A stretch of DNA of 64,000 nt, from positions 128,001 through 192,000 of the forward strand of contig JBBRLI010000003.1 of NCBI GenBank assembly GCA_038231455.1, given 5' to 3'. The translations under genes and the position numbers were made by a program. This DNA comes from Vulcanimicrobiales bacterium. GTDB lineage: Bacteria; Vulcanimicrobiota; Vulcanimicrobiia; Vulcanimicrobiales; Vulcanimicrobiaceae. Shown in pieces: positions 11,181 to 24,600 of the stretch. The notes under the pieces are model-generated. The model was not told the DNA's origin. It saw only the letters and a program-made list of their open reading frames with translations, and did no database searches. Position 1 is the stretch's first letter. Each line of letters begins with the position of its first letter.

Positions 11181-12412
11181 CCCATCGCGTTGTCGTCACC
11201 GGGATTGGCGTCGTTACGCCGATCGGCATCGGAGTCGATGCCCTCTGGGAGGCGACACTCGCCGAACGGATCGCGATCAAGCCGATCACCCGATTCCCGA
11301 CCGACGGCTACCGCTCGAAACTTGCCGCTCAGGTCGAAAATTTCGATGCGGCGAACTTCATGAGCGCGCGCCGCATCCGTTGGACGGATCGTTTTTCGCA
11401 ATTTGCCGTCGCCGCTACCCGCCTTGCGATCGACGATGCCAAGGTTGCACCGACCGTCGATGATGATGAAGTCGGCGTTTTCATGGGTTCTGCACTCGGC
11501 GGCCTTGCCTATGCCGACGAACAACACGACGTCTTCCGCGAGAAAGGTCTCGAGGCGATTCGCCCGTTGCTCGCGATCTCGGTGTTCGGTGGTGCATCGA
11601 CGTGCAACGTCGCGATGGAATTCGGCTTTTCCGGACCCAATGTCGCAAATGGCAACTCGTGCGCCTCGGGAGCCGTCGCGATCGGCGATGCGTACCGCGC
11701 GATCGCGCGCGGCGAAATACGTGCCGCAGTCGCCGGAGGTGTCGAGGCTCCGCTGGCACCGTTGATCTTCGGTGCGTTTACCGTGATTCGCGCGATGTCC
11801 ACACGCAACGATGATCCCGAGCACGCAAGCCGACCGTTCGATCTGAACCGCGATGGTTTTGTGATGGCCGAGGGCAGCGGCGTGCTCTATCTCGAGCGTT
11901 ATGAGGATGCCGTGCGACGCGGTGCGCGGATCTACGGCGAGATCGTCGGCTACGGTCTCACCAACGACGCGCACCATATGTCGGCACCACGACCCGACGG
12001 CGTAATGGCGGCACGCGCGATGACAAAGGCAATGCACGAGGCGCACGTCACGCCGAACGACGTTGACCTCATCAACGCGCACGGCTCTGGGACGGCGATC
12101 GGAGATGCCAGCGAGACGCTGGCCTTCGGGCGCGCGTTCGGTGACGCGCTCCCGGGGATCCCCGTGACCGCGACCAAAGGCCAGCACGGCCACGCGCTGG
12201 GTGCCACCGGCGCCTGGGAGGCAGCGCTTTCTTTGCTCTCGATTGCGCACCAAACCGTGCCGAAGAGCGTCAATTCAACTGATGAAGACCCCGATTGCCG
12301 GCTCCCCATTACCCGGGAACGCCTCGACCTCGCCCCACGCGTTATCCTCAGCAACTCCGCCGGATTCGGCGGCATCAACGCCGCGCTCGTCTTCCAACGC
12401 GTCGATGCATGA
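11177..12412 (+). CDS. Beta-ketoacyl-ACP synthase (FabF/KS-alpha type)
   Basis: VVVTGIG; catalytic Cys in SCASG; His in NAHGSGT and KGQHGH; GFGGINA. Confidence 0.92.
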   Translation: MTHRVVVTGIGVVTPIGIGVDALWEATLAERIAIKPITRFPTDGYRSKLAAQVENFDAANFMSARRIRWTDRFSQFAVAATRLAIDDAKVAPTVDDDEVGVFMGSALGGLAYADEQHDVFREKGLEAIRPLLAISVFGGASTCNVAMEFGFSGPNVANGNSCASGAVAIGDAYRAIARGEIRAAVAGGVEAPLAPLIFGAFTVIRAMSTRNDDPEHASRPFDLNRDGFVMAEGSGVLYLERYEDAVRRGARIYGEIVGYGLTNDAHHMSAPRPDGVMAARAMTKAMHEAHVTPNDVDLINAHGSGTAIGDASETLAFGRAFGDALPGIPVTATKGQHGHALGATGAWEAALSLLSIAHQTVPKSVNSTDEDPDCRLPITRERLDLAPRVILSNSAGFGGINAALVFQRVDA

Positions 12413-13076
12413 TCCGGTCGTCGTCCGCGACGCGCGCAAAGTCTACGCGGGCGAAGGCGCGGAGGTAATCGCGCTTGCGGGCGTCTCGCTTACGGTGAAA
12501 GCCGGCGAGATCGTCGCTCTGGTCGGACCCAGTGGCTGTGGCAAATCCACGTTGCTCAACCTCGTTGGCTGTGTCGATTTACCGTCGAGCGGCGAGATTC
12601 TCGTTGACGGCCGCAACACAAGCGACCTCGACGACGATGCGCTGACGCTCTTGCGGCGCGATCGCGTCGGCACGATCTTCCAGTTTTTCAATCTCTTACC
12701 CGCACTCACGGTCGAAGCGAATGTCGGATTACCGCTGGTCTTGCAGCGCGTTCCCCCTGCCGATGTCGCGAAGCGCGTCGCGCGTGCGCTCGAAGAAGTC
12801 GGGATCACCGACAAAGCGCGCGTCTATCCGCCACAAATTTCCGGTGGACAAATGCAGCGCGTGGCGATTGCCCGCGCCATGGTCCACGATCCGGCGATTC
12901 TGCTCGCTGATGAACCGACCGGAAATCTCGATACGCAGAACGGTGCAAACGTGCTGCGGATGCTGCGCGATCTCGCCGATCGCGGTCAGGCGATTCTGAT
13001 GGCAACGCACAGTCTCGAGGCGGCCGCAATCTGCGACCGCACGATCCGCATGCAAGACGGTCGTATCGTCGGATGA
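12405..13076 (+). CDS. ABC transporter ATP-binding protein (LolD/AttE-like)
   Basis: [26 protein letters not shown]. Confidence 0.95.
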
Positions 13077-15655
13077 ACGCGCTCTTTCGGGCGCTGGTTC
13101 TCGGGCATCTGCGCGGTAACAAACTTCGTACCGGCGTGACGATCCTTGCCGTCGCGCTTGGCGTGGCAATCGCGCTTGCCATCGATCTTGCCAACGCCAC
13201 CGCCGTCTCGTCGTTTGCCTCATCGGTCAACATTATCTCGAGCAAAGTCAACCTCCAAGTCTTGGGTGTCGGTCGCGGCTTCGACGAGAACACCATCCTG
13301 CGCGTGCAAGACGTGCCGGGTGTGCAGTATGCGAGCCCGACGATCGAAGACTCGCTCGTGGTCGGCGCCAAACCCGGCGATCCGCTCTCGGGCGAGATTT
13401 TGCACGTACTCGGCATCGACTTGCTGCGTCCGCTTCCCGGCGATACGACGGCGGGCGGGCTTCCCGGTACCGTCGCCGAGTCCGCAACCACCACCGCGCC
13501 CGATCCGTACGCACTCGTGAACGCTCACGGCGCGTTCTTAAGCGAACGCGTCGCCGCGAAATATCATCTGAAAGTCGGCGATCCGATCGTCGGCCTTGCG
13601 GGCGATCGTCCCGTCACGCTGCGCGTCTCGGCAATCGTTCCCAAGGCCGTCGCGGGTATCGATTCATCGGTCGTCTTCGTCGACATCGCGACGGCGCAAG
13701 AACTCTTTGAAAAAATCGGCCGTCTCGACCGTATCGATCTCGTCATCGACCCGGCGCAACTGCCCGCTGCAATCGCCGCCGTGCGCAAAGTCATCCCGGC
13801 GGGAACGCGCGCGATCGAGCCGGCCGTGCGGACGAGCGAAATCAAACGCATGCTGCGGAGCTTCCAGCTCAATTTGGCCGCGCTCTCGTACATCGCGATG
13901 CTCGTTGGCATGTATCTGATCTACAACACCGTCGCGATCTCCGTCGTCCAGCGTCGCCCGGAAGTCGGGACGCTTCGCGCGCTTGGCGCAACGCGCGGCC
14001 AGATCTTTAAGACCTTCCTTACCGAAGGCGCGCTCTTCGGCATCATCGGGTCGGTCGCCGGGCTCGTGCTAGGCGGTTTGCTCGCGCAGCTTTCGGTCGG
14101 CGCGGTTTCGCGCACCGTCGACGCGCTTTACGTCGCAAGCCACGCCGATCACGTGAACTACGCGCCGCTGGTCTTGCTCAAGGCGTTCGTCGTCGGGGTG
14201 GTCCTTGCGACGATCTCGGCGGTCTTTCCGGCGATCGATGCCGCACGCACGGTTCCGGCGCTCACGATGCGTTCGCAAGGCTTCGAGCGCCGCTCGCCGT
14301 CGCTCGCGCGCAACGCCGCATTCATTGGTGTCGCGCTGCTCCTGGCAGCGTACGCATGCACGTTCGTTCCCGCAATCGATGACATTCCGGTCTTCGGCTA
14401 CGCCGCCGGCCTCTTGATCATCTTTGGCGGTACGCTTTTCGCGCCGATCGCGATCACCACGCTCGCGCACGTGGGCACGCGCCTGCTCGAAAAACGCTCG
14501 CCCGCCGGGACGCTGGCCGTCGCCAACCTCGGATCGTCGCTCATCCGCAATAGCGTTGCGGTGGCATCGCTCATGATCGCGATTGCGATGATGGTGTCGG
14601 TTGCGATCCTCATCGGGTCGTTTCGCACCACCGTCGTTGCGTGGGCCGACGATACGCTGCGGGCCGATTTATTCGTGCGACCGCTCGGGCTTGCCGATGC
14701 ATCGTACGACTCGCGTTTCTCGCCCTCGATCGTCCCTAAAATTCAGAAGCTCGCGGGTGTCGATGCCGTCGACACGTTCCGCGGGATTTCGATTCCGTTC
14801 CGCGACCGCCTCACGACGCTGGGTGCGACCGACTTTTATTCAGCTGCGGATCGAAACAAGCTGCGTTTCATCGGGGCGACCGATATGCGCGCGCTCGCGC
14901 ATCAGTTACCCGGCAACAACGCCGTGGTGATTAGCGAACCGTTTGCGACGCGGTTCAAACTCGACCGTGGGGATTCGTTCGTCCTCAACACGCCCGCGGG
15001 GAACGTCTCGCTCAAGATTTTGGCGATCTATAACGACTATTCCAGCGACTCGGGCATCATGCTCATGGACAAGCGGACGTTCGCGCGTCTCTACCACGAT
15101 GACTCGATCAACTCGATTGCCATTTACGCGAAACCCGGCGTCGATCTTGCGCAACTACGGAGCGATGTCGTGCGGTCCGTGTTGCCGCTCAAGGTTGACG
15201 CCCAGACGACGCGTGAATTGCGCGGTCTTGTTATCCAAATCTTCAATCGGACGTTTGCGATTACGTACGCGCTCTACATCATCTCCATTACGATTGCCGT
15301 GCTTGGCGTCGTGTCCACGCTCTTTGCGCTCGTGCTCGAACGGAAACGGGAGATTGGGCTCATGCGGTATCTTGGGCTCCGGGCGCGTGATGTTCGGCGG
15401 ATGGTGTATTACGAAGCGGGGTTCATTGGGTTTCTTGGGGGCTTAGGTGGGGTTGTCGTCGGGGTGCTGCTTGCGCTGCTGTTGATTTTTGTCATTAATC
15501 GCCAGGCGTTTGGGTGGCTCATCGAGTTGCATATGCCATACGATTTTCTTGGCGAGGCTATTGCGCTTGTTATTGTGGCGGCGCTTATTGCCGGGATTTA
15601 TCCGGCTGGGGTTGCTGCTCGTATTCGTACCGCTGAGGCTGTTCGTGCTGAATAA
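13073..15655 (+). CDS. FtsX/MacB-type ABC permease with duplicated domains (AttF/G-like)
   Basis: 860 aa; two FtsX-type TM blocks (RRPEVGTLRALG; ERKREIGLMRYLG). Confidence 0.9.
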   Translation: MNALFRALVLGHLRGNKLRTGVTILAVALGVAIALAIDLANATAVSSFASSVNIISSKVNLQVLGVGRGFDENTILRVQDVPGVQYASPTIEDSLVVGAKPGDPLSGEILHVLGIDLLRPLPGDTTAGGLPGTVAESATTTAPDPYALVNAHGAFLSERVAAKYHLKVGDPIVGLAGDRPVTLRVSAIVPKAVAGIDSSVVFVDIATAQELFEKIGRLDRIDLVIDPAQLPAAIAAVRKVIPAGTRAIEPAVRTSEIKRMLRSFQLNLAALSYIAMLVGMYLIYNTVAISVVQRRPEVGTLRALGATRGQIFKTFLTEGALFGIIGSVAGLVLGGLLAQLSVGAVSRTVDALYVASHADHVNYAPLVLLKAFVVGVVLATISAVFPAIDAARTVPALTMRSQGFERRSPSLARNAAFIGVALLLAAYACTFVPAIDDIPVFGYAAGLLIIFGGTLFAPIAITTLAHVGTRLLEKRSPAGTLAVANLGSSLIRNSVAVASLMIAIAMMVSVAILIGSFRTTVVAWADDTLRADLFVRPLGLADASYDSRFSPSIVPKIQKLAGVDAVDTFRGISIPFRDRLTTLGATDFYSAADRNKLRFIGATDMRALAHQLPGNNAVVISEPFATRFKLDRGDSFVLNTPAGNVSLKILAIYNDYSSDSGIMLMDKRTFARLYHDDSINSIAIYAKPGVDLAQLRSDVVRSVLPLKVDAQTTRELRGLVIQIFNRTFAITYALYIISITIAVLGVVSTLFALVLERKREIGLMRYLGLRARDVRRMVYYEAGFIGFLGGLGGVVVGVLLALLLIFVINRQAFGWLIELHMPYDFLGEAIALVIVAALIAGIYPAGVAARIRTAEAVRAE

Positions 15656-16874
15656 AATCGTTAAACAATTGTGGCTGGCGGTGGGGGCTGATAGTGCAGC
15701 TCCGGGGACGCTCGTTTCGCCCATCCATGGGCGAAACATCGCTGCGTGCGGAGTTGCTCTCGCCATCCTGGCTTCGCAACTCCTTACAGCCCCCGGAGCT
15801 GCACTATCAGCCCCCACCGCTGGGCACGATCATTTAGCCGCTTCTTCTAAGCCGTTTACTGCTGCCTTGGCACCATTTCGGTTTTCATTTCCTCGAGATC
15901 ATGCCGCGCATACCGATTATCAATCGGAGTGGTGGTACTACACGGGCCACGTCAAGGCGAAAGATGGGCGTCGGTTTGGTTATGAGCTTACGTTTTTTCG
16001 TGTGGGGTTGAAGCCCGGCGATCCGGCTACGCAAAAGTTGCAGTCGAAGTGGCGTGGGAATGAGTTATATCCCGCGCATTTTGCACTCACCGATGAGCGT
16101 GGCAAGACGTTCGTGCATTACGAGCGGTTTGCTCGGGAGGCGCTTGGGGCTGGGCGGGCTTCGACGAAGGATCTGGATGTTCGCGTTGGGGATTGGTTTG
16201 TGAAGGGTGATGGGCCGATGCAGATGCATGCTTCGGCTGGTGGTGCTTCGATTTCGTTTTCGCAAGCCTCTGAGAAACCGCCGGCTGTTCATGGGCATGA
16301 TGGGGTTTCGAAGAAGGGGCCTTGTCGTTCGTGTGCTTCGCACTACTACTCGCTTACACGGTTGCATACGACGGGGACGCTTGTTGTTGGGGGGCAGTCG
16401 CTTGCGGTTGACGGGCTTTCTTGGATGGACCATGAGTTTGGCTCTGATGAATTGCAGAAGACGCAGGCTGGGTGGGATTGGTTTGCCATTCAGCTTGATG
16501 ATAAGCGTGAGGTGATGCTCTACCGTCTTCGTCAGAAAGATGGGAGCGTTACGCCGCAGTCTTCGGGGTCCGTTGTTGCTCAAAATGGAGCCGTGTCGTA
16601 TCTTCCGCTCGATGCGTTTTCGATAGCGGCGAATGGGTCGTGGAAATCGCCGCACACCGGTGGCACGTATCCATCGGGGTGGCGCGTCACCGTTCCGGGT
16701 TCGAAGATGGATCTTACGATTGTGCCGACCGTCCTCGATCAGGAATTGAGTAATACGACCGGCGGCATTTCGTATTGGGAAGGCGCCGTTGATGTCAAAG
16801 ACACCGCTACGGGACGCGTTATCGGCGTTGGTTATGTCGAGCTCACCGGGTACGCGGGGGCGATCAGTCTTTAG
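15645..16874 (+). CDS. AttH/CrtC-like lipocalin-domain protein; start GTG 15645 inferred
   Basis: FPRDHAAH, EWWYYTG, WMDHEF, GWDWF, YWEG, GYVELTGY motifs; GTG overlaps permease end. Confidence 0.85.
   Translation: MLNKIVKQLWLAVGADSAAPGTLVSPIHGRNIAACGVALAILASQLLTAPGAALSAPTAGHDHLAASSKPFTAALAPFRFSFPRDHAAHTDYQSEWWYYTGHVKAKDGRRFGYELTFFRVGLKPGDPATQKLQSKWRGNELYPAHFALTDERGKTFVHYERFAREALGAGRASTKDLDVRVGDWFVKGDGPMQMHASAGGASISFSQASEKPPAVHGHDGVSKKGPCRSCASHYYSLTRLHTTGTLVVGGQSLAVDGLSWMDHEFGSDELQKTQAGWDWFAIQLDDKREVMLYRLRQKDGSVTPQSSGSVVAQNGAVSYLPLDAFSIAANGSWKSPHTGGTYPSGWRVTVPGSKMDLTIVPTVLDQELSNTTGGISYWEGAVDVKDTATGRVIGVGYVELTGYAGAISL
15678..15820. mobile_element. MITE/REP-like palindromic element with 30-bp perfect terminal inverted repeats
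   Basis: GCGGTGGGGGCTGATAGTGCAGCTCCGGGG (15678-15707) is the exact reverse complement of 15791-15820; inner hairpins at 15714-15737 and 15750-15783. Confidence 0.8.
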
Positions 16875-18434
16875 CTAGGCGGCGCTGGATTCGCCCTCTT
16901 CGGCTTTTACCGATTTGCGTAAGGCGACGATCGTGCTTTTTGCGTCGGAGCGGATTTCGACGCCGTCCATGAGTGCGCGCATCATCGGGAGGCCGCGGCC
17001 GCGTTCTTCGCGTTTTTGCGATGGGCGCCACTTGCCGTGGTCTTCGATCTTGATGTGGAGTTCGTCGTTTTCGAACGTGGCCTCGACGCGAGCTAAGCCC
17101 GGGCGCTCGTTGCCGTATGCGTGTTCGACGGCGTTTGCGATCGCTTCACCGACGGCCGTAAGCACACCGAAGCGCGTGTCTTCGCTCAAGTTGACGGACT
17201 CAAGCCAGCGCGAGAGAGAACGGCGCACCATGGGGACGGCCATTGGGAGCGCGGAGAATTCGAAGAAGAACGCTTTACGTTCGTGCGGTCCTATGCTTAC
17301 CGTGAGGGTAGCCACGTCATCGGTGTTTTCTTGGTCGGCGAATATCCGCCGCTGCAGAGCGCGCGCCGGCTCGAGTGGTGCCGGCACATCCATCATCTGT
17401 GCGCGCAGGGCATCGAGGAGCATCGCCTCGCCGGCGAGGACGTCGCGCGAATATTCGATGAGTCCGTCGGTGTAGAGTGTGAGAAGCGAGCCGGCCGGAA
17501 GTGTGAACGTCCAGTCCGTCGCGTCCACGCTCTCCGCAATTCCAAGCGGGATGCCATCGGCGGGGAGTCGCTCGGCAAGTCCGGAGGGCAACGTCAGGAT
17601 CGGCGGGGGATGGCCGGCGCTCGCGTACGATAGCGTACACGTGTGCGGATCGATAATCCCGAAGAGCGCGGTGACCATGACCGGGTTCGAACGCATGTTG
17701 ACGATGGTGTTGGCGCGTTCGATGACGAGTGATGGCGATTTTGGATTGATCGCCGATGCGCGGAAGGCTTGGCGGACCTCGCCCATCACCACGGCCGCGC
17801 GTAGTCCGTGTCCGGCCACATCGCCGATCGAAATCGCGATGCGACCGTCGGGGAGTTCGAAGGCGTCGTACCAGTCGCCGCCGACGATTGCTTCCTGCGC
17901 GCCGGGGCGGTAGGCCGCGTCGTAAAGCATGTTTTCGTGCGTTGGGAGCCGCTCGGGAAGCAGCGCTCGCTGAAGCGTATCGGCGACGAGGTGCTCGCGG
18001 GCATAGGCGCGGGCGCTGTCGATTGCAAGCGCCGCCCTTAGTGCGAGTTCTTCGAACAGGACGATTTCGGCGCCATCGAAACCCGCCAAGCGCGCGACGC
18101 GCAGCACGCCGAAGAATTGATCGCGTGCGACGAGCGGAATGTCGACGGCGAGCGGCGCGTCGGGAGGGCCATGAAAGACGAAGCGGCGGTCGCTCAGCGA
18201 AAGCGCGATCGGATGCGTGGCAAAGCTGTTCTCCACATCGCCCGCGTGGGCGAGTGAGATGAAGCCCGGCGGCTCGTCTTCAATCAGCGCAACGGCGAAT
18301 GCGTCGGCGTGATGGGGAACCGTGAAGGCGGCAACCCCGGCAAGCGCCGCAGAGAAATCGAAGGAGGACGCGAGTGTTTTCGTCGCGTGGGAGAGATACC
18401 GTAGCGTCGCCGACAAGCGATCGGCATCGGTCAT
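16875..18434 (-). CDS. GAF + SpoIIE/PP2C phosphatase + HATPase (anti-sigma kinase-like) fusion
   Basis: VGGDWYD, GDVAGHG, LYTDGLIE, DD; C-terminal EAIANAVEH...GRGL. Confidence 0.9.
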   Translation of the reverse strand: MTDADRLSATLRYLSHATKTLASSFDFSAALAGVAAFTVPHHADAFAVALIEDEPPGFISLAHAGDVENSFATHPIALSLSDRRFVFHGPPDAPLAVDIPLVARDQFFGVLRVARLAGFDGAEIVLFEELALRAALAIDSARAYAREHLVADTLQRALLPERLPTHENMLYDAAYRPGAQEAIVGGDWYDAFELPDGRIAISIGDVAGHGLRAAVVMGEVRQAFRASAINPKSPSLVIERANTIVNMRSNPVMVTALFGIIDPHTCTLSYASAGHPPPILTLPSGLAERLPADGIPLGIAESVDATDWTFTLPAGSLLTLYTDGLIEYSRDVLAGEAMLLDALRAQMMDVPAPLEPARALQRRIFADQENTDDVATLTVSIGPHERKAFFFEFSALPMAVPMVRRSLSRWLESVNLSEDTRFGVLTAVGEAIANAVEHAYGNERPGLARVEATFENDELHIKIEDHGKWRPSQKREERGRGLPMMRALMDGVEIRSDAKSTIVALRKSVKAEEGESSAA

Positions 18435-21600: not shown

Positions 21601-24600
21601 CAACGTTAACTCGATGGCCTCGAACCTGACCAACCAAGTGCGAAACATCGCGAAGGTGACGACGGCCGTTGCCAACGGCGATCTTTCAAAGAAAATCACC
21701 GTTGACGTTCGCGGCGAAATGCTCGAACTCAAAGACACGATCAACGTCATGGTCGATCAACTCAACGCCTTCGCATCGGAAGTCACGCGCGTCGCCCGAG
21801 AAGTCGGTTCCGAAGGAAAGCTCGGCGGTCAGGCCGTCGTGCTCGGTGTCGGCGGCACGTGGAAAGATCTCACGGACTCCGTGAACTCGATGGCCGGTAA
21901 TTTGACGAACCAAGTGCGCGGTATCGCGAAGGTCGTCACGGGTGTCGCCAACGGCGATCTCAAGCGCAAACTCACGCTCGATGCCAAAGGCGAAATCGCC
22001 GAACTTGCGGACACGATCAACGGGATGATCGATACGCTCGCAACGTTCGCCGATCAGGTGACGAACGTCGCCAAGGACGTCGGCTTCGAAGGCAAACTCG
22101 GCGGTCAGGCCGAGGTCCCCGGTGCTGCCGGCCTGTGGCGCGACCTTACGGACTCGGTCAACCAGCTCGCCGCGCAGCTCACCTCGCAGATTCGCGCGAT
22201 CGGTGAAGTTGCAACGGCCGTTACCAAGGGCGACCTTTCGCGAACGATCGAAGTCGGCGCGCAAGGCGAGGTCGCACAGCTCACCGAGAACGTCAACGAA
22301 ATGATCCGGAACTTGCGCGACACGACGCGTAAGAATCAGGAACAGGACTGGCTGAAGACCAACCTCGCGCGCTTCACCGGTATGCTCCAGGGTCAAAAAG
22401 ATATCAAGACCGTTGCGAAGCTCATCATGTCGGAGCTCGCACCGCTCGTCTCGGCGCATACCGGCGTCTTCTATCTCAACGAGCCGGTCGATGAGACGCC
22501 GCTGCTCAAACTGCTAGCGGGTTACGCGTTCAACCGCCGCAAGAACATCACATCGCAGTTCGGTCTTGGCGAAGGGCTCGTCGGCCAGTGTGTTTTCGAA
22601 AAAGAACGCATCCTCGTCACCAACGCCCCCGCCGACTACATTGAAATCAGCTCGGGTCTAGGCTCGTCGTCACCGTTTAACATCATCGTGCTGCCGGTGC
22701 TTTTCGAGGGCGACGTCAAAGCCGTCATCGAGCTTGCCAGCTTTGAGAAATTCAGCGAAATCCACTTACTCTTCTTGGATCAGCTGACAGAATCGATCGG
22801 TATCGTTCTCAATACGATCGCCGCCAACATGCGCACGGAAGAACTGCTCAAACAGTCGCAGTCGCTCACCTCGGAACTCCAGAGCCAGCAGCTCGAACTC
22901 CAGCAGACCAACGAAGAGCTGGAAGAAAAAGCCCGCCTGCTCTCGGAGCAAAACGAAGAGGTCGAACGACGCACGCGCGAGATCGACGAAGCCCGTCGCG
23001 CGCTCGAACAAAAGGCCGAGCAACTCGCTCTCACCTCGAAATACAAATCCCAGTTCCTCGCGAACATGTCGCACGAGTTACGCACACCGCTCAACTCGCT
23101 GCTACTGCTCTCAAAGCAACTCGCGGACAACAAAGAGAACAACCTCACGAGCAAACAAGTCGAGTTCGCCTCGACGATCCGCCGCTCGGGTACGGATCTG
23201 CTCACCCTCATCAACGATATTCTCGACCTCTCGAAGATCGAATCGGGAACGACGTCGGTGGACTTCGCCGAACAGCGCATCCACGACATTGCCGATGACG
23301 TGGAACGCACGTTCCGCTCGCTCTCGCTCGAACGGGGTCTTGCCTTCGGGATCTCCGTCGATGACAACGTCCCGCCGGCGATCGAAACGGACTCCACGCG
23401 CCTCATGCAGATCATTAAAAATCTGCTCTCGAACGCGTTCAAGTTCACGCAAGAAGGCCACGTCGAGTTGCGTATTAGCCAAATCGACCGGACCGACACG
23501 ATGGGGAACACGGGACCGTTTGTTGCCTTCTCGGTCTCGGATACCGGCATCGGCATTCCGACGGACAAGCACAACGTGATCTTCGAGGCCTTCCAACAAG
23601 CCGACATGAGCACGGCCCGCAAATACGGCGGGACGGGCCTCGGCCTTGCGATTTCGCGTGAAATCGCCGGCTTGCTCGGCGGCGATATGACCGTTGAGAG
23701 CGAACCGGGCGTCGGCTCGACGTTTACGTTCTTCCATCCGCTTGGCGCACGCAAAGAACGTACGAACGACAACGCGATCATGCTCCCGCCGAAGCCCGCC
23801 AAGGCCGGCGGAGCTGACGCGCCGTTCCGTGCACTCCCGCCGCGACCCGTGGTGGAACGTGCGGCGCAGATCGCGAACGCACGCGCCGGCGAAATCGAAG
23901 TCGACGACGATCGCAATGCGATCAAGCCGACGGACCGCACCGTCCTCATCATTGAAGACGACGCCACGTTCGCGCGGATTCTGCTCGGACTCGCACGCGA
24001 TCGCGGCTTCAAAGGCATCACCGCACACACCGGGGCCGACGGTATCGCGCTTGCACGTGCCTACATGCCCGATGCCATCACGCTGGATATTCGTTTGCCC
24101 GATATCGACGGCTGGCAGCTGCTTGACGCCATCAAAAAAGACCCGACCACGCGCAACATCGCGGTACACGTGATCTCGGGCGAAGAACAGTGGCAGCGCG
24201 CGCTCGACTCGGGCGCGGTCGCGCACTTGAAGAAACCCGCAAGCGAAGATGCGCTGACGGAGGCCTTCGACAACCTGCTCGGTTTCGCGGATAACACGAC
24301 GCGCAATCTGCTTGTCATCGAAGACGACGTCACGCAACTCTCAGCGATGGCCAATCTCGTCTCATCGGGCGAAGTCACCGTCACGGCGGTGAGCACCGGC
24401 AGCGAGGCGCTCGCAGCGCTCGATCGCGGTCGTTTCGACTGCGTCGTCGTTGACCTTGGTTTGCCCGATATCGACGGCATCCAACTCATCGAGCAGATCA
24501 AAGCACATCCGGCGCACGTGCGCGTCCCCGTCATCGTCTATACGGGCCGGGAACTCGACGAACAACAGGAGTCCGCCCTGCGGCGCCTGAGTCAATCGAT

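Follow-up and report, generated by a model that had tools for sequence, protein, structure and literature searches.

A dispersed palindromic repeat with an oriented, kilobase-scale compositional halo in adjoining genes of a Vulcanimicrobiales bacterium

Introduction

What causes the codon usage of a gene to change in mid-course, and the change to run on through the next gene, when the encoded proteins remain intact? This question is raised by a stretch of 64,000 nucleotides from the genome of a soil bacterium of the Vulcanimicrobiales (GenBank assembly GCA_038231455.1, contig JBBRLI010000003.1, positions 128,001 to 192,000), called the window below, in which an ABC-transporter permease gene and a CrtC/lipocalin-domain gene meet at a structured palindromic repeat (the element). 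An earlier note, made from the letters of the window, described here a cytosine-depletion halo centred on the element and considered the element a possible mutational hotspot. Local strand asymmetry in bacteria is usually read as a sign of replication direction, expression or foreign origin; here a repeat of ~180 nt predicts its position, direction and extent. The halo is very probably a footprint that the element imposes on the neighbouring host DNA and that is oriented by the element. Positions without a contig or locus prefix are those of the window. The genome of the window (a 3.71-Mb assembly) is labelled G000, its sister species, which is ~86% identical, G001, and a closed relative genome G005.

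Results

The composition shift at the window locus lies mostly 3′ of the element

The shift within the permease gene is real, as a recount of the codons exactly reproduces the reported numbers of C-ending codons, 24 of 50 from position 13862 and 14 of 97 in 15362-15652. In bins of 40 codons, the frequency of C at third codon positions (C3, with A3, G3 and T3 defined likewise) declines from 0.30-0.60, reaching 0.17 at ~15350 and, over the lipocalin gene until ~16680, 0.03-0.20, with T3 rising to 0.30-0.42 and G3 to 0.40-0.50 in the skewed zone. The GC skew of the + strand is -0.02 to -0.11 over the 2 kb upstream, 0.20-0.33 in 15250-15700 and 0.16-0.28 in 15850-16750, and it drops away within the palindrome itself. 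The G+C content is lower in the zone than before it (0.53-0.59 versus 0.60-0.68). In the 1 kb 3′ of the element the G+T content is 0.601 (z = 3.8, above the 99.9th percentile of all 1-kb genome windows, sd 0.0266).

The inverted repeat described earlier is also confirmed, with arms of 46 nt at 15662-15707 and 15791-15836 that are 87% complementary; the DNA fold of the element has an energy of -74.4 kcal/mol (z = -13.9 when compared with shuffles). The halo is not centred on it, as had been proposed, and lies mostly on its 3′ side, where the + strand has 57-65% G+T per 250 bp over ~1.25 kb and reaches ~50% by ~2.25 kb. The entire body of the CrtC/lipocalin gene is within this halo (A3 0.10, C3 0.19, G3 0.40, T3 0.32), and of the permease gene the last ~300 nt alone. 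The 5′-side part of the window copy, ~310 bp, is the strongest and longest among ten genomic copies and is likewise present in the sister species. The depletion of cytosine on the + strand stands as described, with the correction that A is depleted too. In the convergent SpoIIE gene further downstream, the coding-strand G3+T3 is 0.381 (0.619 on the + strand), which is a weak halo tail at most and is inside the normal range.

The element belongs to a family of structured repeats

Plain blastn of the window element against its own genome gives weak matches only. A genome-wide scan for inverted repeats yields 13 long ones, and nine of these share one build, in which a G-rich arm with GGGG at its end is separated from a C-rich arm by an interior of 69-116 nt; a tenth copy is just under the threshold of the scan. 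Model R1, a covariance model of a shortened core built from the nine copies other than that of the window, finds exactly ten loci in G000 and fixes their strand, with the window copy scoring 86.8 bits (E = 3.6e-17, + strand). The family in G000 consists of these ten diverged copies of ~165-195 nt, each of them oriented.

Across the ten aligned copies the 5′ end is conserved as (G)ATTGTGGCT, being AATTGTGGCT in the window copy. Stem P1 (~35 bp, variable in sequence between copies) is followed by the junction GGGGACGCCCGC, hairpin P2 (..CCCATCCATGGG..), the linker GCTACTTGCTGAC and hairpin P3, which has a 32-nt insert in three copies, and the 3′ end is GGCACGATC. The two ends resemble each other (ATTGTGGC and the reverse complement ATCGTGCC), and no consistent target duplication is seen when the aligned copies are judged by eye. 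The RNAalifold consensus of the ten copies has 59 pairs, 38 of which have compensatory changes on both sides. Paired cells amount to 91.8%, whereas shuffles have 71.6% and slid controls 41-46%. The covariation score is 0.502, which none of 500 shuffles (0.157) attains, and with slid partners it is 0.07-0.12. Judged from this alignment, the structure of the old copies is under selection and kept by compensatory change. As G-U-type and A-C-type mismatches are nearly equal in number (15 and 13, counted by hand), neither the folded strand nor an RNA versus a DNA form is indicated. Rfam 15 has no family that matches at its gathering score, and its microRNA-precursor-like hairpins reach 33-43 bits against cut-offs of 97-168 (E <= 1). 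The repeat is a palindromic repeat resembling miniature inverted-repeat transposable elements (MITEs), a new family of a known kind.

All ten copies carry a halo whose polarity follows the element

The canonical strand is G+T-rich directly 3′ of the element in all ten copies (binomial p = 0.002 for the same side), and at every genomic copy checked the polarity follows the orientation of the element and not the gene strand. The mean G+T content of successive 250-bp segments downstream is 63, 61, 59, 57, 56 and 53%, and it is back to 50% by 2.5-3 kb. The halos extend from ~50-300 bp before the 5′ end of the element to 1-2.5 kb beyond its 3′ end, and the skew of the short 5′ part agrees in sign with that of the 3′ part, at the window copy as well as in the average over the ten. 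For the individual copies the G+T content of the downstream 1 kb is.601,.637,.638,.569,.601,.605,.548,.620,.531 and.629, which is above the 99th genome percentile in eight copies and above the 99.9th in seven. Conversely, 13 non-overlapping 1-kb windows of the genome are the most skewed (|G+T - 0.5| > 0.08), and eight of them have a copy at a distance of 2.5 kb or less; among these eight, the window at C1:316001 is upstream of its copy and seems to reflect amino-acid composition.

The halo genes comprise core genes (gatC/gatA/gatB, dnaX, thiC, dnaA, ogt and the gene of the glycine-cleavage P subunit) as well as a beta-lactamase-family gene and a Vgb-lyase-family gene. The most extreme gene of the genome is gatA, with a G3+T3 of 0.785 (mean 0.468, sd 0.048). 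In nine of the ten halos the canonical strand has 13-26 G-runs per kb, compared with 9.6 genome-wide, and C-runs, which are depleted, number 2-9 per kb. The possibility that the orientation goes with the replichore, raised in the earlier note, is not borne out in the closed genome G005, where 21 of 40 copies are co-oriented according to our own reading of positions relative to dnaN.

The change is strand-specific and almost entirely silent

In genes co-oriented with the element (2,259 codons) the values of A3, C3, G3 and T3 are.063,.196,.406 and.336, compared with.128,.407,.305 and.161 in the genome, and in genes on the opposite strand (1,396 codons) the pattern is mirrored (.196,.512,.208 and.084). 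Such antisense halos are found at four of the ten copies in G000 (vgb, gcvP, ogt and dnaA) and also at carB, beside a copy that only G001 has. This mirroring excludes codon selection and gene transcription as causes. The genes of EF-Tu, EF-G and the ribosomal proteins are ordinary (G3+T3 0.41-0.51), so high transcription alone gives no halo. On these two grounds, the antisense halos and the normal composition of highly expressed genes, transcription-associated asymmetry is rejected.

A spectrum of C>T, C>G and A>G on one strand had been proposed and is indeed seen, with the qualification that C>T is dominant and that C>G occurs mainly after G (GGC>GGG, CGC>CGG). From genome to halo, the two-fold families shift from 0.34 to 0.83 for TTT, from 0.50 to 0.84 for GAT, from 0.53 to 0.75 for CAG and from 0.46 to 0.65 for GAG, and the change of C>G after G raises GGG from 0.14 to 0.46 and CGG from 0.16 to 0.33. 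When third positions of the zone are compared with the element-free ortholog of G005, there are 97 C>T against 4 T>C differences and 62 C>G against 27 G>C. For C>T, the odds ratios by neighbouring base, calculated by hand from the codon table, are 2-9 in all contexts, and there is no clear deaminase-like motif. The halo change sits almost only at silent codon positions. In agreement with the earlier observation that the proteins are intact, first and second positions barely shift relative to the G005 ortholog, and the protein identity of the zone is like that outside it.

Profiled relatives without the element at this site have no halo

Of 41 near relatives, 22 have a match to model R1, and the copy number ranges from 0 to 55. 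With a cut-off of E <= 1e-8 there are matches in 35 of 71 genomes from the same family and in the one genome of the sister family (1/1), and none in 78 genomes that represent 19 other families of the phylum. Among the genomes searched, the repeat family is restricted to a single family of the Eremiobacterota/Vulcanimicrobiota and the sister of that family. The tallies over 41 genomes, here and below (model R1, PF01797, PF00078, RNase H and uracil-DNA glycosylase, UDG), include G009, G020, G022 and G036, which are flagged as unpublished and on which no locus-level claim is made. G005 has 55 hits, of which ~36 are near-identical, and this near-identity is a signature of recent proliferation. Empty orthologous sites exist at the crtC operon.

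The loci of 25 relatives have been scanned at the site of the window element. An element in + orientation is present in L055, L063 and L068, a high-scoring copy in - orientation, with no clear halo, in L074, and a partial match covering 34 nt of the model in L066. Composition has been profiled at 17 loci (L056, L059, L062, L065, L066, L067, L069 and L078 are left out, having a short upstream flank or another anchor position). G000 and the three loci with a + copy have 62-74% G+T from about -750 to +1000, and the 13 profiled loci without an element at this site have no halo. In G005 the stop codon of the permease gene overlaps the start of the lipocalin gene, and there is neither element nor halo. 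The codon bias is absent from the orthologs without the element, and the earlier view that the halo goes with the element rather than with a transferred gene is upheld by the ten genomic copies with a halo together with these halo-free operons.

A horizontally transferred island is likewise rejected, since the operon occurs in relatives with normal composition and the polarity follows the element in 10/10 copies. An exception is a segment of 2.86 kb on contig C12 (L002:2813-5672), containing the element and vgb, which is absent from G001.

Differences between the sister species

In G001, element and halo are present both at the locus of the window and at five more shared loci, and the downstream G+T content is 0.568-0.592 in all seven G001 copies measured. 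Beside carB there is an element that only G001 has. Divergence within 1 kb of it is 0.32 and 0.16, compared with ~0.11 further off. On the canonical strand, sites with C in G000 and T in G001 number 41 within 1 kb, the reverse being 7, and the ratio beyond is 46:55 (p = 3e-6); within the same 1 kb the A/G differences are 40:16 and the C/G differences 34:18. The synonymous counts in carB are 11:1 for C>T, 21:6 for A>G and 19:6 for C>G, with a protein identity of 95-97%. At the beta-lactamase-family locus, an extra spacing of ~750 bp in G001, between the element and the DNA that is aligned, is accompanied by a weaker halo (.502 versus.565) and a 76:24 asymmetry. At gatC the hairpin has been lost in G001, leaving fused termini, and the halo persists (64, 64, 57 and 65%); sites with T in G000 and C in G001 number 90 against 37 for the reverse, compared with 130:86 in controls (p = 0.05). 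Where these two species differ, the asymmetry has the direction that is predicted, and the halo follows the presence of the element and the distance from it.

The hairpin-deletion scar of this gatC copy is at ~25272 on contig C33 of G001 (L193), and both species have a nearby solo fusion of the end motifs (L001:3980-3994). Fusion and scar suggest repeated insertion and hairpin loss at one site.

Candidate enzymes and mobilisation

A mutagenic enzyme, as considered in the earlier note, has not been found. The transposase family Y1_Tnp (PF01797) has no match in G000, G001 and G005; six of the 41 genomes have a match, unrelated to the presence of the element. The reverse-transcriptase family RVT_1 (PF00078) also has no match in G000, G001 and G005, and matches two of the 41 genomes. 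Mobilisation of the REPIN/RAYT or IS200/IS605 type is rejected, there being no Y1 (HUH) transposase in these three genomes. A retron or diversity-generating-retroelement model is also rejected, as these genomes have no reverse transcriptase and the spectrum is not adenine-specific. A search of G005 for an autonomous master copy, made with the pattern of the stem arms, finds longer variants and no transposase. One G005 copy (L149:2855-4038) is split between P3 and P2 by ~1.1 kb containing a MarR-GNAT gene, and is either a cargo-bearing variant or the result of an insertion into the element.

The window locus and other features

The features of the window locus are listed in Table 1. The open frame of the crtC/lipocalin gene passes through the repeat, with TTG 15669 or GTG 15681 as candidate start. 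The P3 region of the element encodes a signal-peptide-like stretch (..ALAILA..); the frame is open, and the stretch conserved, in G000, G001, L063 and L068. The element-free lipocalin ortholog of G005 has a different N-terminus of its own. The N-terminus of the lipocalin protein looks like an in-frame exaptation of the palindromic repeat.

Table 1. Features at the locus of the element; positions refer to the window.
Feature	Positions	Strand	Description
ABC ATPase gene	12201-13076		
ABC-transporter permease gene, 860 aa	13073-15655	+	Pfam FtsX 7.3e-38, MacB_PCD (periplasmic core) 1.9e-20
5′-side halo part	15350-15661	+	sharp left edge; C3 0.40 to 0.17 between bins starting 15233 and 15353
Structured palindromic repeat element	15662-15836 (core 15667-15831)	+	canonical orientation
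CrtC/lipocalin-domain gene	15669-16874	+	Pfam CrtC 7.4e-53, Lipocalin_9 9.9e-44
3′-side halo	15837-17100	+	reaches slightly into the convergent gene
Convergent gene, 535 aa	16875-18482	-	SpoIIE/PP2C phosphatase + HATPase_c_2

Elsewhere in the window, a weaker skewed zone with a C+A-rich + strand is found at 22601-23500, inside a gene of 1,467 aa, and no repeat copy is detected nearby. On contig C31 of G000 a thiamine pyrophosphate (TPP) riboswitch (L006:4283-4403) lies between the repeat and thiC, inside the halo, and scores 45.7 bits, below the Rfam gathering score of 54.3. On contig C12 (L002:2835-3030) the 5′ end of the repeat abuts the T-run of a terminator after a glutamine-synthetase gene, and T-rich sequence precedes several other copies. 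The copy on contig C4 lies between dnaA and dnaN (dnaN at L003:3389-4504), beside DnaA-box-like sequences (region L003:4630-4935). A second, unrelated family of long palindromes, with arms of 65 and 121 nt, is present at C3:83388-83665 and C7:33789-34192 of G000; ~500 bp of one-sided G+T skew adjoin it, with 62% on one side and 37-38% on the other.

Discussion

A proposed mechanism

The best explanation of the whole, to which we give a little less than an even chance, combines an old MITE-like copy, a halo imposed by the element and a mechanism that acts on single-stranded DNA. For the mechanism itself, it is tentatively proposed that the element strand is repeatedly single-stranded downstream via an R-loop or a displacement loop (D-loop). 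The element would leave its own strand single-stranded as the displaced strand of an R-loop or, alternatively, as the displaced strand of a D-loop or of strand-displacement synthesis starting at the element. Exposed C would deaminate, generating C>T and, through abasic sites, C>G, and exposed A would deaminate, generating A>G, with purifying selection preserving the proteins. The loss of C and the clusters of G might stabilise the loops in a feedback, and the outcome would be a slow, saturating bias rather than a high-rate hotspot. An R-loop or D-loop is favoured because the geometry, with a strand running 5′>3′ away from the 3′ end of the element, and the spectrum of C>T, A>G and C>G fit prolonged single-strandedness. 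In single-stranded DNA, C deaminates >100-fold faster and A more slowly, and gradients of C>T and A>G are found on the displaced mitochondrial H-strand, according to sections of PMC3269012. A G+T excess of the non-template strand, and GC skew as a factor favouring R-loops, are described in parts of PMC10030826, and R-loop-prone GC-skewed regions in parts of PMC4245955. It is conceivable, although we consider it somewhat unlikely, that structured mobile repeats are natural, orientation-specific modifiers of substitution over the kilobase range of adjoining host genes, acting via persistent R- or D-loops and abortive one-way initiation.

Several observations weigh against the loop mechanism. At seven loci shared by G000 and G001, pooled over 1-1500 nt, divergence is 0.128 in the halos compared with 0.150 in controls, and C<->T exchange is 40 compared with 45 per kb. 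As the established halos have no excess divergence, they point to a slow bias and not to a rate hotspot, and the hotspot of the earlier note, understood as a raised rate, is not supported. If only the C>T rate had risen, the C<->T exchange should be about twice as high, so a bias in fixation or repair fits at least as well. Halos are weak or absent at young copies. In G005 the mean G+T content is 0.522 in the 1 kb downstream of the copies and 0.484 upstream (p = 8e-5), with ~0.46-0.52 for the youngest copies, and halo strength has a non-significant trend with age (rho -0.24 to -0.27, p 0.09-0.14). In five other genomes (41 copies) the values are 0.527 downstream and 0.491 upstream (p = 8e-6), exceeding 0.55 in 9 of 40 copies and being below 0.45 in none, and the signal is largely within the first 250 bp. 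No sigma-70-type promoter is found in or beside the three elements scanned (3 of the 10 loci), with a consensus that may not be that of the phylum; because of this, and because a terminator abuts the 5′ end at C12, transcription driven by the element is unsupported. The palindromic stem gives no explanation of the polarity of the halo. RNase H is encoded in 39 of the 41 genomes and UDG in all 41, and both are uninformative, being present with or without the element. Finally, dnaN, on the 5′ side of the dnaA-dnaN copy, has a strong halo with the polarity reversed (G3+T3 0.71, compared with 0.45-0.53 in G005, G006, G007 and G010), which may be due to a lost second copy or to an origin-specific effect. 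The skew changes sign at this copy only; the window copy and the average over the ten lack the sign change that marks a skew switch at a replication origin.

Alternative explanations

The alternative that survives best, to which a low probability is given, is a fixation bias, in which selection, or strand-directed repair or conversion, favours an element strand poor in C and A. For example, C would be kept low and G and U high in a transcript leaving the element, which would thereby resist Rho and be unable to pair with the G-rich arm of the stem. Such a shift in fixation predicts what the established halos show, no excess of divergence or of C<->T exchange; it is also in agreement with the dependence of the effect on orientation and distance, and with the selection that appears to maintain the structure of the old copies. 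However, such a bias would have to reach hundreds of silent sites across 1-2.5 kb, those of the antisense genes vgb, gcvP, ogt, dnaA and carB among them, and neither the lack of a detected promoter at the scanned loci nor the persistence of the halo after hairpin deletion is expected from it. We know of no function that requires so long a tract poor in C and A.

It is improbable that the halos arise from breakage or nicking of the palindrome, such as cleavage of the hairpin during replication or a nick at a specific site, followed by resection or nick-translation and error-prone resynthesis of the element strand, with T opposite G and G opposite T as the commonest errors, which generate C>T and A>G on the new strand. 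Error-prone repair synthesis makes kilobase-scale mutation zones near breaks, and the geometry and scale of the halos fit this. The stem is long and perfect and could plausibly be cleaved, and the hairpin-deletion scars show that the palindromes are unstable. The divergent, two-sided pattern at dnaA-dnaN and the slightly reversed upstream mean in G005 would fit a break with two ends, but such a break predicts mirror halos, and nine of the ten are one-sided, with an upstream part of the same polarity. Moreover, C>G is untypical of misincorporation, the established halos have no raised divergence, and no HUH nuclease is found in the PF01797 search.

Hitch-hiking, in which the element arrived by homologous recombination together with co-converted flanks of a donor of lower G+C content, is largely refuted and very improbable. 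The abrupt left edge in the window would agree with it, as would the coincidence of the C12 halo with the segment missing in G001 and the raised divergence next to the G001-only element. Yet it fails on the polarity set by the element in 10/10 copies and on the mirrored codon usage, and it does not account for the involvement of core genes (gatCAB, dnaX, dnaN, thiC), for the lack of such composition at the operon in all 13 element-free relatives profiled, or for the weaker halo of the same orthologous DNA when it is 750 bp further from the element. Ordinary transcription or replication asymmetry, or an assembly artefact, is refuted and has next to no probability: a G+T excess on non-template or leading strands is of a known kind and one copy lies in the dnaA-dnaN origin region, but highly expressed genes are normal, antisense halos are mirrored, G005 has no replichore rule, and the halos recur in independently assembled genomes.

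Implications

If the cause is mutational, the elements are natural probes of the bias that non-B DNA, R-loops or nicks bring to one strand, and mobile DNA can alter essential genes at their silent sites over millions of generations. If it is a fixation bias, there is an unrecognised long-range constraint on silent sites. Either way, the halos can be mistaken for horizontal transfer, distort estimates of codon usage and of synonymous divergence, and weaken sequence models of nearby features such as the TPP riboswitch before thiC. Should the R-loop or D-loop proposal be true, the repeats would correspond, on bacterial chromosomes, to the mitochondrial D-loop or to immunoglobulin switch regions, and selfish DNA would have a new route to reshape the codon usage of core genes (gatCAB, dnaX, dnaN, thiC).

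Comparison with known systems

The vertebrate mitochondrial D-loop is similar in that one strand is exposed from a fixed start, with graded C>T and A>G changes mostly at silent sites, as described in sections of PMC3269012. The halos differ from it in being chromosomal and local (1-2.5 kb), in being anchored on a dispersed repeat and known from sequence alone, in including C>G and in having no raised divergence. R-loop-prone GC-skewed regions and switch regions share with the halos a strand rich in G+T and G-clusters that runs 5′>3′ from a start, as portrayed in parts of PMC10030826 and PMC4245955. Unlike R-loop and transcription asymmetry, the polarity of the halos ignores the direction of the host gene, the most expressed genes are without it, and the three loci scanned have no promoter. 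The enzyme-driven part of the immunoglobulin switch regions, that of activation-induced cytidine deaminase (AID), has no counterpart identified here.

MITEs, REPIN/RAYT, Correia and Rickettsia palindromic elements are short, non-coding, hairpin-forming and multi-copy. The halo repeat resembles them in its patchy distribution of 0-55 copies per genome, its near-identical young copies in G005 and its empty sites, and, as in the Rickettsia palindromic elements, the reading frame of a host gene passes through one copy. It differs from MITEs and REPINs in having no Y1/RAYT gene in G000, G001 and G005, no identified transposase and no clear target duplication, and in a structure kept by compensatory change. 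We know of no family of these kinds (MITE, REPIN, Correia or Rickettsia palindromic) that imprints a compositional halo.

In ColE1-type R-loop-primed origins and chromosomal R-loop initiation sites, a structured G-rich RNA/DNA element starts one-way synthesis, with ~0.5-1 kb of the non-template strand displaced. Unlike these origins, the halo repeat is present as ten dispersed copies, one of them at dnaA-dnaN, and is known from its sequence and not as an origin. Engineered targeted mutators, in which a nickase is joined to a polymerase or a phage RNA polymerase to C and A deaminases, generate C>T and A>G on one strand in a kilobase window from a defined site and in a defined orientation. These systems are artificial, high-rate and enzyme-defined, unlike the natural halos, which have no excess rate and no linked deaminase or nickase. 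As far as found, an oriented, kilobase-scale compositional halo anchored on a repeat is undescribed in open-access papers and preprints, and we propose that it is a variant of the strand asymmetry that is generated by single-strand exposure.

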